From Rhynchobatus australiae (Eukaryota), in contig JAUZTB010000048.1 of the NCBI GenBank assembly GCA_034780895.1, positions 14,457,831 through 14,521,830 of the forward strand: a DNA stretch of 64,000 nt. Direction: 5' to 3'. The stretch's first letter is position 1, and every line of letters begins with the position of its first letter. Position numbers and translations under genes: made by a program. Of the stretch, positions 29,345 to 60,524 are shown in pieces. The notes under the pieces were generated by a model. That model was not told the DNA's origin. It did not search any database and saw only the letters and a list, made by a program, of their open reading frames with translations.

Positions 29345-29420
29345 AAGCAAAAAACAAACTGCTGGAGGAACTCAGCAGGTCAGGCAGCATCAGTGGAGGG
29401 AAATGGACAGTTGACCCAAA
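29345..29420 (-). mobile_element. Penelope-like element terminal fragment
   Basis: 'aaacaaactgctggaggaactcagcaggtcaggcagcatcagtggagggaaatggacagttgac' is shared with the termini at 31740, 34160 and 34834. Confidence 0.7.
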
Positions 29421-31737
29421 ACTGAAGGGAAGTGGCATTACATCTCGATAATCACATGTTAATCAATGACCAGCACCTCAACTTCCTGACCAATAGACAG
29501 CATTTCTAGTGAGATTTTGTTATTGACGTTCTTGTGAATAGAAGTTGGCAGATGACTTTGGTGTGGCTAATCACTGTAGATGTACCAATGGTCCGGAAAA
29601 CATCTGTACTCTCTTCCCATTAGAAAGGCGGCAGTTGTCATTTTAAAATAACATGAAAGTATGTCTAATCCTCTTACACCAAGCCCTCTGCTAACCAAAG
29701 GCCTGTTTTTTTCCTCTTGACTATCAAAGAATAAATATAATATTTTTAAGTATTTGTAGTTTTCTTTCCCTCCACTGAAGTTTGCATCCATATCCACTTT
29801 ATGCTCAGAACAACATACACGTTATGGGCATATCCACAATCACCATTAATGTAGCATACTAGGAATTGCATAATATGGCATACTAGGAATTGCATTACTG
29901 GAGAGTTTCTTCCCCTAGCCATTTACTGGAGATTGATCTTCATTCCTCAGCTTTAACTAAAGCAGATTTCCTGGTCATACATTTCAATCCTAGGTTAGGA
30001 AAAGTGAGGTGAAAGCCTTCAGCAATGATGACAATGTGGAAGCTATAGTTGATGACAGAGGCAAATGGGCTGTGGGCAAAATTACACCTTCATGACAATC
30101 AGTGTTTTCAATAACTTAACAAAAATGCCAATGCTATGGAACTATAGATTATCATCCAGTGACACATCCAGTTACTGCTCAAACCATCTTAATCCTTCCA
30201 GAATTGACTCATTTAGTCATCAATGGAATTAATCACAAGGGCCTCATCAACATTTGAAAGCTGCACATCCACTTTCTCATGTAGATGGAAGGAGGCTAAA
30301 AACTCATCACAATTTACTCTGCACAATTTGGCTATTCTGTCTCCTCTGGTTTGCAGAGGTCCTTCAATGGCTGCAAAGTGTCTTGGTATAAATGCAAGTT
30401 CTCTTCTCATTCTGAAACTGGGTATTGAGTCACTACAGCAGATACCCAAAACTGAGAGCTGCAGGACAGTAGATGTGAATTTGGTTTTCATAACCACAAG
30501 ATTAATGATGGATTGCTATAAATTTTAGGCTGCAAATACATTCCCTCCAATGCTCAAGGCATGACTCATAGTGAACAATTTCACTGGCATCAACTGTCTT
30601 CCATTATTTCACCCAAATCACCATTTTTCATGTGTGAGTGTCAACAGTGTTAATAGGCTATCTGCATACCGTGCACCATATGTAAGCTTGTTTTCATGAT
30701 GCTCACTTTAGGTACTTTCATGTCGGGTCACCAGGTAGCTATCAGAAATGGGAAGAAGTTGCTTTGTTTTCATCACTAACTCTGATATCAGCTGAAGCTC
30801 TCAGTACTATTACATCTGATAAAGCTAACAATACATGAGAAAAGGCACATATGGATGTTTTTCACCCTAGGCTGTATACCTTTTAACAGCTATCAGGAGA
30901 TCCATACAACTCTAATTCAAATCACCAGGCAGGTACAAAAATGATAGCTTTCAAATGATAACACTGTGCAAAATTGTGCAATTCTGAACGTAAAAACTGG
31001 ATAAGTTAAACACCAAGTTAAATAAAACAAAAAATGTTAGCAACAAATCCAAATCATTAATTTGTAAAACCTACCCCATTCCATCCTGCTATATTTTAAA
31101 GACAGACTTTCAAAGCCAGTACAGGGACAGCAGTGAAAATATTTTACCACATGTGACTGCATTTTAGACAGTCACATTAAGAGATCTAGCCTAAAGGTAC
31201 AATAAATATAGTTTTTTGGAAAGCATAGAAGTATAAATTGTGTCATGCCCAGAGGGTGAAAGAATACTGAATGTGGTTGTGATGGTAAGTATTTAAAGGA
31301 CACATGGCTGTGTCCTTTAGAAAGAGTTATTAATGACTATTTCCAACTGTTCAGATGTGATGCATTTTAACTAGGTAGAAGTTATAGCATTGTGCAGTGA
31401 GTAGATCTTCAAATACACACATTGAGTGTCAACACCAACATTTATAGTGTGCATTTACACTGTGTATAAAATAGTTGTTAGCTTTGACATTGATTTAATG
31501 GCACTGAGCAAAATTAAGACACATCCTGCAGTTACAATCCTAGCTCAAATCTTGCATCACCTTGCATTTTACCATCATAATACTATTTGATATTTTTTTC
31601 TATATGGTATTTTTGCATTTCCGTGGCAAAGCAGTGCGGTATATTTTAATCAATTCAAATCACAGCTTATGTTAGAAATACTGCGAAGAAGGATATTATT
31701 TTCTTAGCTTAACTTTTTCCCCAATAAATGAAAATAA

Positions 31738-32725
31738 AAAAAACTGCCAATGCTGGAAATCTGAAATAAAAAAAACTCAACAGATGAGGCAGTGTCTGTG
31801 GAAAGAGAAACAGAATTCAAGTTTCAGGTTGAAGACACTTCATCAGAACTAGGAAAGAGAGGAAACTAGTTTTAAGTTGCAGAGAACATGAGAGGGGGAT
31901 TGGTAGAACAAAGGGAGCATCTAAGATAGAGTGAGATCAGCATTGTTGTGTGGATAAGTTGCAGAGGTCAATTAGTCAATCCATTAGTGGGAACTATTAG
32001 AGAGCAAAAAATGGAATAATGTTTATGAGATGAGGGCCGTTGGAAGGCAAAATTGCAAAACAATGTAAAATGATGCAAAATACAGGGCAGTAGGATATGC
32101 CCACCAAGTTTCAATGTGCTGATGGGAAAAGAAAAACCAAGCCAGTATCACAGATGGATGTCTTACTGCAGAAGAGACCATTTCTGAAAGAGTGTGGCTT
32201 ACCTGAAGTTGTAGAACTCAATATTGAGTCCAAAAGGATGGAACATGTAACAGAAGATGAAGCTGTGTTCCCAAATTTACGTTGGATCTCACTGTAACAA
32301 TGCAGCGGGCCACAGGCAGATAGGCTGGAGTGGGAGTGGGATGGTGATTTAAAGTAGCTGGGAAACTGAAACCCCCCCTGCGGACGGACANNNNNNNNNN
32401 NNNNNNNNNNNNNNNNNNNNNNNNNNNNNNNNNNNNNNNNNNNNNNNNNNNNNNNNNNNNNNNNNNNNNNNNNNNNNNNNNNNNNNNNNNCCCCCCCTGC
32501 GGACGGACACAGGTGCTCTCCAAAATAGTCGCCACATCTGTGTTTGTTTTCTCCACTGTAGAGACAACATTGTGAACATCATAAAACATGAATCACTTCC
32601 CCACAACTTAAATGTAACTTGTTTTCACAGTTTCCCAATTATTGACCCGAAACCTCAAATGTTTCTCTTTTCACAGATGCCGCCTGACCTACTGAGTGTT
32701 TACAACACTTTCTGTTTTTTTTTCA
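31738..32725 (-). mobile_element. Penelope-like retroelement: GIY-YIG endonuclease remnant with inverted termini
   Basis: Minus frame near 32578-32200 reads CSQCCLYSGENKHRCGDYFGEHL..FKSPSHSHSSLSACGPLHC..GLNIEFYNFR, matching the PLE pattern CSxCGLLYIGETKRRLGDRFAEHL. 32645-32725 is an inverted copy of the 31740-31830 terminus. Confidence 0.85.
31812..31850 (-). ncRNA. Minimal hammerhead ribozyme-like motif (degenerate)
   Basis: Minus strand reads AGTT-CTGATGA-AGTGTCTTCAACCT-GAAAC-TTG-AATT. Both conserved core boxes are intact, but the predicted cleavage triplet UUG is not NUH. Confidence 0.6.
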
Positions 32726-33239
32726 ATAAAGTACCAGATAGTGGCTTACCTAAGCCACAGGGGTGCCATCCTTTGGCAATAAACAGAACTACAAGCATTT
32801 ATATGCCCTGACCATCTATGTAACTTTAAACATCTTTGATTGACACAGTGCATTCAATTGGAATGTATCAACCAAATATAATCATAAGGACTATTCATTA
32901 ATTTTAGGATTAAATGTGGTGGGGTGGGAGCAGGAGATTTGCAAAGACTCTAAAAGATAAAACAACATTTCTATCTGTTATTTCTATCATCCTCCAGTGT
33001 CTTTCATCCACTGAGAGTCTCCAGCCAATTTATTCTGAGGAGGATAGCAAATTCAAACGGGGAAACACAGAACAAACACTCAGGGAGCAATCTTATTTAC
33101 TGATTCAGATATTTCAGTCCAAACAGATCCAAGTCACACCCATCAAACTTTCTAAAATTAAGACTAACTGAGTAGTTTAAAGGAGCAAACTTGGTGGCAT
33201 ACAAAAGGAGTTAAGGGTGGAATCAAATCAAAAGGAAAG

Positions 33240-34157: not shown

Positions 34158-34252
34158 TGAAACAGAAAATGCTGGTAGGATTCAGCAGGCAGCATCTGTG
34201 GAAAGAGAAACTGGGTTAAGGTTTCAGGTCAAAGATCCTTCACCAGGACTGC
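34158..34252 (-). mobile_element. Penelope-like terminus with degenerate hammerhead core
   Basis: Minus strand reads AGTC-CTGGTGA-AGGATCTTTGACCT-GAAAC-CTT-AACC; the flank is homologous to 31740-31850. Confidence 0.7.
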
Positions 34253-34299: not shown

Positions 34300-35420
34300 A
34301 TGAATGCAAAGGTTTAATTAACACAGGGGTCTACAATATTGTTGCCATCACTGAGACATTGTTGAAGGACGGGCAAGAATGGCAACACAATATCTCAAGC
34401 TATAGAATTTCCAGGCGAGATGGAGGGGGGAGTAAAAGGGGAGGGGGTACTGCTGAAAAATGAGATGGAGTTTAATCCAGACAAATATGAGGTGATGTAT
34501 TTTGGGAGGACTAATGAGGCTAGGACATACACCACGAATGGAGTACAAAGAGACTTTGGAGTACAAGTCCATATATTCTTAAAGGCAGCAGCACAGGTAG
34601 ATAACAGGATTCCAAAGTAATATGGGATACTGGTCTTCACTAGTCAGGGCATCAAATACAGAAGTAGGAAGGTTATGTCCCAACTTTATAAAAACTTGGT
34701 CAGACCTCAGCTGGAGTACTGCATGCAGTTCTGGGCACCACGCTATAGGAAGGATGTGATAGTGCTGGGGAGGGTGCAGAGGAGGTTCACCAGGACGTTG
34801 GAGACATAAGCACCTGCAGATGCTAGAATCCAGAGCAACAAACAATCTGCTGGAGGAACTCAGTGGGTGGAGCAGCATCTGGGACTGATGCAGGGTTTCA
34901 GCCCAAAATGTTGACAATTCCTTTCCTCTCGCAGATGCTCCTCCACCCGAGTTCCTCCAGCAGATTGTTTGTTGCTTCACCAAGATGTTGCCTGTGATGG
35001 AGCAGTTCAGTCATGAGGAGATACAAGAGAAGCTAGGTCTGTTCTCCCTAGAGCAGAGGAGGTAGTAAGAGGGCATGATTGAGGTATAGAAAAATAAGGG
35101 GTATCGATAGGGTAGAGTGCAGGAAACCTTTCCCCATATCATAGATAGATAGAACTAGAGGAGACAGATTTAGGCTAACAGGGGAGAGATTTTGAGGTGA
35201 TCTTTTGCACTCAACAGAGTGGCAAGTACCTGGAATGTACCACCTAGAACTGTGTCGCTGACCACATTTAGAGAATACAAAGATGAGCACTTGAATTACC
35301 CAGGTTTAGAAGGCTATGGACCACGTGCTGGGAGATGGGAATAATACAGAAGGATCCCCACTGGTCAGTGTGGACAAGTTGGGTCAAAAGTCCTGTTTCT
35401 ATGCTGTATGATTCTATGAC
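34300..35420 (+). mobile_element. CR1 LINE (endonuclease scrap, RT C-terminus, 3' tail)
   Basis: YNIVAITET; MEFNPDKYEVMYFGRTN; LVRPQLEYCMQFWAP; tail ctgtatgattctatgact. Confidence 0.9.
34801..34976. mobile_element. Short palindromic Penelope-derived non-autonomous element with a 15-bp target-site duplication
   Basis: Perfect 28-bp inverted repeat at 34834-34861 and 34949-34976; flanks ttcaccaggacgttg (34786-34800) and ttcaccaagatgttg (34976-34990). Confidence 0.85.
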
Positions 35421-35589: not shown

Positions 35590-36745
35590 TAAGGTTGATC
35601 AATGGATCTTTGTGTACAATGCTATGCTTCTGGCTGGCAGCATGTCAGAATCCATGAGGAAGGGCACCATTACCTTCATCTACAAGCAGTAGTGGGAGAG
35701 GGAGGGCATCAGAAATTGGAAACGCATCTCACTGTTGAATGTGGATTATAAGATCCTATCCAAGGCCATCGCCAACAGGGTCAAGTTTGCTCTAGGACAG
35801 GTGATCCACCTGGATCAAACCTGTGCTGTAGCTGGCAGGAAGATCTTTGACAGCCTTGCGCTGCTCAGGGATATGATCGCCTTTGTGCAGGACAGAGGGG
35901 TGGACACCTGCCTGGTCAGCTTGGACCAGGAGAAGGCCTTCGACAGGATATCACACACGTNNNNNNNNNNNNNNNNNNNNNNNNNNNNNNNNNNNNNNNN
36001 NNNNNNNNNNNNNNNNNNNNNNNNNNNNNNNNNNNNNNNNNNNNNNNNNNNNNNNNNNNNAACTCACCAACAAGCACCAAGACCTGGCTTGGCTGGCGGT
36101 GAGAGGGGTCCTCCCAGTCAGATCCTTCCTGCATGGTCAGAACATCACTCCCAGCTCATGCTACCCCCAGGAGGACTGCACTGAGGACAAGACAGTCGCC
36201 CAACTCTTTGTGGGCTGTGGGTTTGCAAGGAGAGTGTGGCGAAAGATGCAGGGGTCATTGTCACGGTTCATCCCCAGCAGTTGTGTAACAGAGGATTCTC
36301 TGATCTACGGGCTGTTCCCGGGGATGCACACAGAGACAGATATCAACTGCTGCTGGCTTTGGTCTGCCTGAAACTTGGTCTCCCAGCACTGCGAGATGTC
36401 CGTAGGGGAATGCTGCCAACTGGAACATTCTAGGCTGCAGGAGTACGTGCTGAGGGACGCACTGAAGCAGGGTGCAGCCAATACAAGGGCTCGGTGGGGA
36501 AGGACTACAGTTTAGGGTTCTTCTGCCACTGGAGATGGAGGGGCAGAGTCAGGTGAGGAAGCCCCTTAAGGATTGTAAATATGGCCCCAGGGAGCCACAT
36601 GAGGGGCATCGGTGCTGTGGCTTTTATAAAACATAACACTAAGGATTGATCTGTACACAAATGTAAAGGTTTGCACTGTTTTATTATTGTATATAGTTTG
36701 TTTTTATTATGAATAAAGTTTATTTTGGATAAAAAATAAAAATAA
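35590..36745 (+). mobile_element. Tx1/L1-clade LINE, 5'-truncated, with a gap in the middle
   Basis: RT NVDYKILSKAIANRV..DQTCAV..LVSLDQEKAFDRISH; C-terminal LTNKHQDLAWLAVRGVLPVR..C..C..LFVGC; AATAAA at 36712-36717 and an A-rich tail. Confidence 0.92.
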
Positions 36746-44424: not shown

Positions 44425-44500
44425 CAAAATGTTAACTGTTTTTCTTTCCACAGACACTGCTTTACTTACTCAGTGTTTCCAGCATTTTCTGTTTTTAACT
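44425..44500 (+). mobile_element. Penelope-like terminal fragment
   Basis: 'aaatgttaactgtttttctttccacagacactgc..ctcagtgtttccagcattttctgttttta' is the reverse complement of the 31740 and 34160 termini. Confidence 0.65.
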
Positions 44501-44699
44501 TAAATATCCCTAGGTTTAAAATTCTGCTGAAATCTCAGCAAGTTAATCCTACCCATTTACATTGTGAGAGCTGTCACGAAGTTCTACATCTCCATGCCTT
44601 CTTTTGGAACTCACAGACGTTTTCTCTCGATAAAAGGTTAAGTGTTAATGATTGAGTAAGAAAAAATTCTTATGTTACTCACTTTTGGATTTCTCTACA

Positions 44700-57200: not shown

Positions 57201-58143
57201 ATGCTGTCACAGACCAACAAGGCCTATTTTGTAATTCAAAGTGCTCACAGATACTTTGGGCTTGAAGACATGCAGCGTTTCCTACTGCCTGCGTTAGCAA
57301 GTGTAAACTGAAAGTTGGATCAGTGACACTTCTCATTCAATATCTATTTCTAATGGAAATGGTGTTAAAAGATTTAGCAGGGTAATTAGTCCTCAGGGTT
57401 GCAATTTACCAGTTTCCAGTCCTCTAACACTGACAGGACACAAATTTAATCTGAAGATTGATGCTGCAGATTTAATACGATTCTTCATTTAATCCATCAC
57501 ATTTGCAAAGTCAATAATTGACTCAACAACTAAAGATCAGCAGTTTGTAGACAAGTTCAGAGACAATCATAATGAAGTTGCTGGCCCAAAGCAGATGGCA
57601 TTGTCAGCCATTTAGCCCATGTGAACACAGATTTGTTCTACGTACATTCATTTAGATACTTGTTCATATGAATCAAAAAGGTGGTGATATTTTACTAAAG
57701 CCTCTAACAAAATAATCACAAATAAGTATTCTGTACAAAACTGGTGACAAACATTTGATTTTCTTTGAAGTCAAGCTAGTTTTCTGAACTTCAACTTGGC
57801 TTCTGGGAACTTAGTTTACTTTTGGCGTGGGAGGGAAAGGGGAAGTGGGATTACAGAGAAAAAAAGAAAAATGTTGGAAATAACAACTAGTTTACCAGGC
57901 AACATCCAAAAGATAAAAATAAAATTTAAACATCAATGTTCTTTGAGGGTATAAATGAACATCTAGATCTCGTTAATTAAGCAACACTTGAACCCTTTTC
58001 TTGGTTCCCTTGAATCAAATCCTCAGATTCCAATTTTAAAAAATGTAAACATTCAACCTTCAGAAACCATTTTTAAAAGTCTTCATACAGCATTGATCAC
58101 ACTTTTAAAAAAATGTTTAAAGCAAGATGTAAACCATTCCTAC

Positions 58144-58953
58144 CTTCTTGAGCAATATTGGGATCTCTACTGTTACTGGGTCCACAAGTGCTGTACAGTG
58201 AAGCAAGATCTTGTGGGTTGTAGGAATTCAAAATTTTCAATACATTCCAATGAGAATCAATTCCATTTGAATCCAAGGCTGATCCTGGCTTAGTTGATAC
58301 CCCTGTGCCTCTTGCCTGAATCGGTGACATCTCCTGAGATAATTTTATATTTCTTCCTTGGATACTCCTCCTTATTCCAAATGAAAGCTGATCATTTCTT
58401 AAAGGACTATTTATTTTCATTCTTTTAGCTGTAGGCTCATGCGAGTCCAAACCTCCCTGATTCTCAGACACATTAGTAAGACACATTTTGCTAACATTTG
58501 GAGCCCAATGACCATCATATCTAAACAAAGGTCCCCTGGGTCCTTCAGATTCATAGTCCAATTTCGTACCAGATTTTTCAGACACATTTCTCTTGCTGGT
58601 ACCAGCTTCTGAAGATCCATTTCTCTCTGTTTTTTGCACCACCTCTTGCATTTGTCTAGTTTCAGAATGTACAGATCCATAGCTTTCAAGATGTACATTA
58701 GGATTCTGGGTCACCTTGAATGCTTTGAAGTCACCAGAAGATCTAGAATCTGCAGTAGAAGGAATGATATTATTGCACAGAGACTGGTGTGAGGAAGATG
58801 GTAATTTTGCCTTTCCAGGTAGCAAGTCCGAAGCATCTGGTGGAGCTGCTGGTAGTGGTGACTTGGTCCGACGAGAAAACTTTTTGCTCATTTCTTTGGT
58901 GGCAAGCAAAGAAGAAACATCTTGACCTAATCGTGCAGGAGGGCATCCAGTGC
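58144..58953 (-). CDS. ZNF217: ZNF217 large exon, 3' part (CtBP RRT-motif remnant and low-complexity C-terminal region)
   Basis: Open frame from the gap edge: TGCPPARLGQDVSSLLATKE...NIAQE (human RRTGCPPALLGKDV); donor G|gtagga at 58143. Confidence 0.9.
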
Positions 58954-59476
58954 NNNNNNNNNNNNNNNNNNNNNNNNNNNNNNNNNNNNNNNNNNNNNNN
59001 NNNNNNNNNNNNNNNNNNNNNNNNNNNNNNNNNNNNNNNNNNNNNNNNNNNNNTCAGTTTAACTCCAACTCCACATTAATTTGAATCCAAAATATTTTAG
59101 TTGGAGAACTACAAATCTGGAACTAGGAACCAGAAATCAGTGTGAGTCTGTCAGTAAGTATATTGTCCTGTGGAAGGATCTGCCTTGATCCTACAGCTTT
59201 AGTGTCTTCTTAGACATTGCACTGTGAGGCAAGTTTGTTTGTGGTTTAATCGATGACTGAATTCATTGAAGTTGTTAAAAAAACATGTCCATGTTTTGTA
59301 CTGTTTCCATTCTTGGTGTGCATAATCTTTTCTAAACCTAGCACCAAAACAGAAATGACCAAAGAAAGCCATATAGCTGGGACATCCTAGTTCAAATAAA
59401 GCATTGTTATAATTCACATGCTTTAAGAGATGTCAAAACTCAACTTGTGTGCTTCACATACTTTTCTGGTTGTTAG

Positions 59477-60366
59477 TCAGGCAACATCATTTATTGGACT
59501 TGGATCAGGATTATACTTGTGTACCAACCTTTGGTGCATCACTAAGACCTCTGGGTAAAAAGTTCTGTAGGTACAAAATGGGCACATGTTGCTCAGTAAG
59601 GCACTCTTGGAAAATGAGGTAGATGCATTTCCCTGAGGACTACCACCGCTGCACAGACTTTGCTGATAAATTGCGGTACAAAGATTCAAAGGCTTTTCCG
59701 ATAAGTTGGATTCATATTTATCACAGTAGTCCTCCATGTTACCTCTAGCACTAATGTAGCATTGGTCATTTATTGAACTTGGTTCCACCTTCATACTTCT
59801 AGCATTATTCTGTTGTGTATTATTTTCTGCCAGTCCTTCCATTAAACATTCCTCCGAAACCTTGGAATCATCTAGTTCAGTAGCAACCTTTGCATCGGAG
59901 TCACTTCTCTGCAACTCACCCACTAGCTTTTCATCCTTCAATTTCTCACCAGGTGGAACAGGCAACAGTGCATTGCAGAAGATCCGCCGATTGTGATGGA
60001 AATTTGTACTTTTGTTCAGATCTGGGTATTCCCTACTCACATTTGAAAACTCTGCATTTTGAAAAATTGGACTAGTAGATGAATGAATCCGTTTCTGTTT
60101 CCCCCGAGGAAAGTCTGCATCTAAATCTTTGGCACTGCCCAAAGAATCTGTAAAAAACCGCTTGGATTCTGTAGATTCCTGAACAGGTTCATCATTTTCT
60201 TTTGGTGCTACTTCTAATTTTGGAGATGCCAATGAATTCTTCAGAGGATCACTCCTTTCTTCCGTCCTTTTCTGCTCACCCTTGTGATGCCGTTCCAAGT
60301 GATACTTCAGTGAGGTTTTTTGAGCTGCAGCATAGTCACAGAGAGGACATCTATGGGGTTTTTCAC
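59477..60366 (-). CDS. ZNF217: ZNF217 large exon, 5' part (two C2H2 fingers and a PLNL motif)
   Basis: Acceptor tttttgtttcag; GEKPHRCPLCDYAAAQKTSLKYHLERHHK, EKPLNLC and CPFCTYRTFYPEVLVMHQRLVHKYNPD are ZNF217 signatures. The 3' boundary is uncertain (see findings). Confidence 0.93.
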
Positions 60367-60524
60367 CTGAAACAAAAATAAGTGCATTTTACTTGTTTTA
60401 AGTATGCCATAATATTAGGATAGACCAATTTTTTTTACACCACAATAATCAAACCTAAAAACAAAATTCCATTAGCCAGACCATCATACAAGTAACTGAA
60501 CAATCAGTCCCGGTAACTGATACA

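Follow-up and report, generated by a model that had tools for sequence, protein, structure and literature searches.

An old, 5′-truncated Penelope-like retroelement in Rhynchobatus australiae from a high-copy family with a minimal hammerhead motif, predicted dead in this copy

Introduction

Minimal hammerhead ribozymes (min-HHRs) have been described in the pLTRs of metazoan Penelope-like retroelements (PLEs), including the fish elements Xena, Poseidon, and Neptune (Cervera and De la Pena, 2014, PMC4209133). Thus, minimal hammerheads of fish PLEs were already published in 2014, and the feature considered here is an instance of a known general property. Minimal PLE hammerheads are reported to have no activity as monomers and low activity as dimers (PMC4209133), and low or protein-dependent activity is reported for such motifs in two studies (PMC4209133; PMC11167929). 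PAc, a Poseidon element of Anolis, mainly uses uncut RNA as its substrate, and its hammerhead cleaves only when protein is present (Frangieh et al., 2024, PMC11167929).

Among PLEs, only Neptune and Poseidon are reported from vertebrates (bioRxiv 10.64898/2026.07.22.740005), and a linker of the C-x4-C-xx-C type (CX2-5CxxC) marks Neptune and Nematis as opposed to Penelope/Poseidon (Craig et al., 2021, PMC8557442). Animal non-LTR retrozymes share with the element described below a type I hammerhead related to those of PLE pLTRs (PMC7229834; bioRxiv 10.64898/2026.07.22.740005).

Here we describe a PLE copy from a 64-kb stretch of Rhynchobatus australiae DNA (the window). We found no paper on its family; the supplements of PMC4209133 and of the bioRxiv preprint may list cartilaginous-fish motifs. 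In its host group the family differs from the min-HHRs of PMC4209133, the searched supplements of which contain no shark or skate term.

Results

The window carries a 5′-truncated PLE copy on the minus strand at 31729-32723. The first-pass annotation had recognized the element but set its bounds at 31738-32725; these are corrected here, the shared end of aligned relatives halting at about 31727-31729. The following features can be distinguished.

31722-31728, no strand: probable left target-site duplication, 7 bp, AT-rich, with an identical 7-mer at 32724-32730
31729-31817, minus strand: 3′ pLTR downstream of the cleavage site, including a tail of about 30 nt, with a 15-nt deletion relative to the family
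31814-31850, minus strand: minimal type I hammerhead motif, broken, with whole core boxes
31851-32074, minus strand: 3′ untranslated part or pLTR body of the subfamily, from alignment to the subfamily majority
32075-32186, minus strand: second, decayed hammerhead-plus-tail unit, ends approximate, preceded by an inverted hammerhead 5′ arm
32199-32585, minus strand: C-terminal remnant of a GIY-YIG endonuclease with its stop codon, with frameshifts and small deletions and no reverse transcriptase (RT)
32391-32490, no strand: assembly gap of 100 N, an overlap artefact (32372-32390 is identical to 32491-32509)
32596-32723, plus strand: inverted, 5′-truncated pLTR copy, its CUGAUGA box gone through a 13-nt deletion
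32724-32730, no strand: probable right target-site duplication, deduced from the matching left 7-mer

The N run is bordered by an identical 19-mer, and both borders map onto the same 17 family positions. Thus, the gap is an overlap artefact without real sequence, and therefore the true length of the element is about 876 bp; no bridge across the gap was seen among contigs from four public runs. Over 31731-32231 the element is identical to the majority of 12 subfamily relatives at 363 of 465 positions (78%).

Comparison of the element ends with each other confirms the inverted termini noticed earlier, with arms of 42 nt that are 79% complementary; the inverted arm is longer than first noticed and starts at 32596. 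It cannot act as a hammerhead partner, because the CUGAUGA box is missing, and it also sits on the other strand. Counted from the cleavage site, the main end extends to +100 and the inverted end to +72, the tail of about 30 nt being present on the main end only, which matches the one-sided 30-40 bp tail of PLEs (PMC8557442). An inverted, 5′-truncated copy that makes inverted ends, with a tail at one end, is likewise known from Neptune PLEs (PMC8557442), and PAc shows two preferred 3′ ends about 30-40 nt apart and an AT-rich target (PMC11167929). The 7-bp AT-rich repeat around the element is probably a target duplication, although a chance 7-mer in AT-rich DNA is conceivable.

The endonuclease remnant, also proposed from the first reading, is matched at 32578-32202 by a 129-aa open endonuclease frame from a relative (tblastn E 6e-9) and was aligned at the DNA level with the majority of 30 relatives. 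This frame hits Pfam GIY-YIG weakly (E 0.017, below the cut-off); genome-wide, there are 51,770 first-look candidates for it. The family majority has CxxC before YIG, two later histidines, and the C-x4-C-xx-C linker. The best four of 12 longer homologues are proteins of the rays Mobula hypostoma and Hypanus sabinus with 57-61% identity, which agrees with the cartilaginous-fish affiliation suggested before. Homologues carry RT motifs, the same linker, and a CCHH-type GIY-YIG; in four of them the Pfam GIY-YIG E values range from 5e-4 to 0.05, below the cut-off, and RVT_1 scores are likewise below. RT lies upstream of the endonuclease in one ORF in relatives L109, L120, and L136 and in homologues P0004 and P0011. 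L120, which belongs to a sister subfamily, combines RT and endonuclease with a hammerhead-like end downstream. The Penelope-like identity of the element is thus supported by the endonuclease remnant, the RT-endonuclease relatives, and the inverted pLTR with a one-sided tail. Elsewhere in the window, at 35693-36371 (plus strand), there is an unrelated LINE-type reverse transcriptase fragment (RVT_1 E 5e-11).

By its linker motif, rather than by a tree, the element likely belongs to the Neptune clade. The C-terminal CCHH GIY-YIG, the linker, and the 5′ truncation all have counterparts in Neptune PLEs (PMC8557442). In contrast to these, the present family yielded no full-length or tandem copy: no complete pLTR-ORF-pLTR tandem was present in 20 long-frame regions or 30 loci of the N-terminal region, in an assembly that is gappy. 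PAc differs in being a Poseidon element without the linker zinc finger, and in being active in vitro, whereas the present family is known from sequence (PMC11167929).

The hammerhead motif lies exactly where the first-pass annotation had placed it. On the minus strand, CTGATGA (31846-31840) is followed by 14 nt, GAAAC (31825-31821), and the triplet TTG (31820-31818), with AGTT (31850-31847) and AATT (31817-31814) as flanks. Stem I of the window copy has 4 bp, one of them G.U. The NUH triplet, the palindrome, and the intact stem II of a minimal type I hammerhead are all lacking: the triplet is UUG, with G at the cleavage site; positions 15.1-16.1 read ACUU in place of ACGU; and two of the five stem II pairs are broken at places where the family majority is fully paired. 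A G at position 17 blocks hammerhead cleavage (the NUH rule). The hammerhead of this copy is therefore predicted to be dead, as had been supposed, and the copy is likely inert. Just downstream of the cleavage site is a pyrimidine tract (window about 31812-31797, minus strand; also in the family majorities), which ends in CAG or TAG before ATG in two subfamily majorities and in CGG in the third; by its letters the arrangement resembles a splice acceptor or the start of an ORF.

The loose core pattern has 10 matches within the window, so that the motif alone proves little, and its reality has to be judged from family counts. A covariance-model scan against Rfam, of the kind recommended at first reading, gave no match to a hammerhead family, with E values up to 10 admitted, either in the window copy or in the intact copies L166 and L034. 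Since intact copies are missed too, Rfam cannot decide the question. The window copy also gave a Y_RNA match (22.9 bits, cut-off 38), which we regard as a chance hit, absent from intact relatives.

In the genome (2.23 Gb) we observed 7,410 exact minimal-hammerhead cores, as opposed to 208 in the control. The pattern comprised only the core with the ACGU palindrome and NUH triplet, and the control was the same pattern reversed. The full subfamily pattern, consisting of stem I, core, and stem II, gave 18 matches and no control matches. The 3′ 163 bases of the element have 2,190 first-look candidates genome-wide, the best with 73-88% identity. Stems lay outside the core search pattern; among the first 30 core-only loci, picked by core letters, at least four contiguous stem I pairs are formed in 12 (shuffled mean 0.5, maximum 4) and at least four stem II pairs in 21.

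The family structure is seen best in three subfamily majorities, derived from 47, 14, and 9 loci; the stems of the 47-locus set were prescribed by the pattern used to select it. Both boxes and ACGU are retained in all three, and the differences among them lie in stem I, loop II, and position 7. At the family level, the CUGANGA and GAAA boxes, the NUH triplet, and the palindromic 15.1-16.1 are present. A consensus without core or stem pairing had been named at the outset as the case against a hammerhead; the three majorities retain the core, and the stems pair. In 29 distinct rows, 80% of cells pair, compared with 17-42% when the sides are slid. Changes on both sides of a pair occur in 9 cells against 4.4 in shuffled data, mostly as one C-G to U-A switch in one pair; this covariation is modest and thin, and related sequences alone could produce such changes. 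The G10.1-C11.1 closing pair is G-C in two subfamilies and G.U or A-U in that of the window.

The family resembles the min-HHRs of PMC4209133 in the type I layout with one bulged base after the first box and a short stem I, in the palindromic 15.1-16.1 without a real helix III, and in thousands of mostly solitary copies with opposite-strand pairs a few hundred bases apart. It differs from them in stem II, here of 5 bp and in the window's subfamily closed by G.U or A-U rather than G-C, and in a fixed, decayed upstream duplicate (PMC4209133).

Forms of the core junction point to a CpG-containing ancestor. A hand count of the first 100 of 296 open-pattern matches gave 36 CA, 37 TG, 8 CG, and 19 others, with T at position 17 in 81, C in 14, G in 4, and A in one; among 30 fetched open-pattern loci there were 11 CA, 10 TG, and 1 CG. 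The symmetry of CA and TG is the mark of CpG decay of an ancestral GAAAC-GUU. Together with the subfamily majorities, it supports the ancestral core CUGAUGA..GAAAC-GUU/GUC that the first-pass annotation had proposed. Among the 29 best matches to the window copy GAAAC-AUU is the majority; we rejected a non-palindromic GAAAC-AUU ancestor, this set being biased toward the letters of the window, whereas the open-pattern sample is symmetric.

The family is very large, and most of its copies are decayed. In 40 ten-kb regions at round coordinates (L216-L255) we observed 84 pLTR ends in 326,277 non-N bases, that is, about 257 per Mb, or roughly half a million genome-wide if the sample is typical. The hammerhead is spanned by 43 of the 84 ends; 11 keep the core letters and none keeps the core with ACGU. 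Most genomic copies are short pLTR ends. Neighboring pLTR pairs less than 1 kb apart are oriented outward in 13 cases, inward in 4, and on the same strand in 8. In the window itself, five further pLTR ends of the family lie at 29354-29415, 34160-34251, 34800-34972 (an inverted pair), and 44427-44509. At one locus (L171/L172, G000:C1:2828233-2828336), two identical intact cores are found 76 nt apart on one strand; such a local tandem duplication could conceivably provide a dimer in cis.

The subfamily of the window contains an older hammerhead-plus-tail unit straight after the endonuclease stop codon (window 32186-32075, minus strand). Its self-alignment score is 99, compared with a mean of 55 and a maximum of 76 in 500 shuffles. 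In the majority of 12 copies both core boxes of this unit are changed. The decayed core lies upstream of the whole one, the two being 293 majority columns (about 300 nt) apart. The junction of the inverted 5′ arm with the hammerhead unit has 510 exact matches and none in the control. It forms a loop-less palindrome right after the endonuclease stop, the inverted hammerhead 5′ arm coming first and then the unit (L256-L285). Judging by its sequence, the inverted arm could pair with the 5′ arm of the ribozyme and block it. In a sister subfamily, the unit behind the junction is nearly intact (L277, L280, L281, L283).

Finally, we considered where genomic copies begin and how old the insertion is. 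Only 3 of 76 copies have 5′ ends within -2..+4 of the cleavage site. As the ends do not gather there, the genome gives no sign of cutting in vivo. At the 5′ edge of the hammerhead (-36..-30), 18 of 76 copies start, several of them from subfamilies with upstream sequence unlike that of the three queries. Contigs from two other organisms cross from the unique flank into the element; the insertion thus predates their split and is old. One of these contigs, 632 nt long, spans the hammerhead; no difference is listed for it at the triplet G, and this weakly supports an early loss of the ribozyme.

Discussion

The element is very probably an old, 5′-truncated insertion of a high-copy PLE, in whose active ancestors the 3′ repeat included a minimal type I hammerhead; the one here is predicted to be dead. 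By analogy with PAc (PMC11167929), the RT-endonuclease protein would have nicked AT-rich DNA. The template RNA was presumably still uncut at this hammerhead, because the copy contains sequence from either side of the cleavage site and 5′ ends are not gathered there; PAc copies, also derived from an element with a pLTR hammerhead, extend past the cleavage site as well (PMC11167929). Copying would then have halted within the endonuclease gene, and insertion of another short copy in inverted orientation may have followed, producing the inverted ends, the one-sided tail, and the 7-bp duplication. After insertion the copy probably decayed neutrally, the ribozyme being lost by drift in inserted copies. 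In source elements, by analogy, selection likely maintained a ribozyme of weak, conditional activity, its cutting requiring either a partner through the ACGU palindrome or the protein of the element.

A different view of the last step is that the element is a PLE, but the family motif is a non-cutting vestige, either retained as a structure for protein binding or priming or merely copied along. We consider this rather unlikely, though it has several observations in its favor. Copies retain 60-105 nt past the cleavage site with no 5′ pile-up there, and stem II of the window's subfamily is closed by G.U or A-U, not by the conserved G-C. In PAc, mutation of the hammerhead leaves insertion in vitro normal, and RNA-seq shows no reads terminating at the site, but the PAc motif does cleave with protein (PMC11167929); for Xenopus, 8 of 9 dimers were reported as uncleaved (bioRxiv 10.64898/2026.07.22.740005). 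On the other hand, three subfamilies have all retained the boxes, a cleavable triplet, and the ACGU palindrome while differing around them, and the window's subfamily lost the boxes in the upstream duplicate while keeping them in the end copy. The subfamily comparison and the decayed duplicate speak modestly for selection on the core in source elements. Loss of the boxes upstream with retention at the end suggests selection, although it happened only once, and the same picture would result if the end unit had been captured recently.

A non-autonomous retrozyme or SINE-like element made of pLTRs is a very improbable origin for this copy. Most genomic copies are indeed short pLTR ends, and retrozymes, which derive from pLTRs, are reported in one chondrichthyan (bioRxiv 10.64898/2026.07.22.740005). 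However, the copy includes about 270 bp of endonuclease coding sequence, and the junction of this with the element's own 3′ repeat is that seen in relatives. Retrozymes are tandem, non-coding repeats (PMC7229834), whereas the window element is a dispersed, truncated copy with no tandem array, and its hammerhead is minimal, not of the canonical retrozyme type (PMC7229834).

Co-option of the copy, so that its RNA cuts or regulates a host transcript such as that of the C2H2 zinc-finger gene that shares its strand at a distance of about 25 kb (exons at 58097-60388, minus strand), is scarcely credible: the insertion is common to other organisms, but G occupies the cleavage site, helix III and stem II are broken, the 78% identity to the family is that of a neutral copy, and with about 257 such ends per Mb a nearby gene means nothing.

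Returning to the history of an inserted copy decaying from a source element with a selected hammerhead, the window's subfamily allows a more specific and quite doubtful proposal. In this view the source element would have had two units, only the end copy of which kept its boxes, and PLE propagation would select for one working ribozyme at the 3′ end.

A single dead copy matters little. Through its family, however, cartilaginous fish join, at very high copy number, the groups from which minimal PLE hammerheads have been described. It bears on the in vivo role of PLE hammerheads, for which the copy ends point to an uncut RNA template. If selection for one working 3′-end ribozyme does operate, then cartilaginous fish, given the more than 7,000 intact cores, many of them likely in host transcripts, would be suitable for testing trans cleavage of minimal-hammerhead dimers in vivo.
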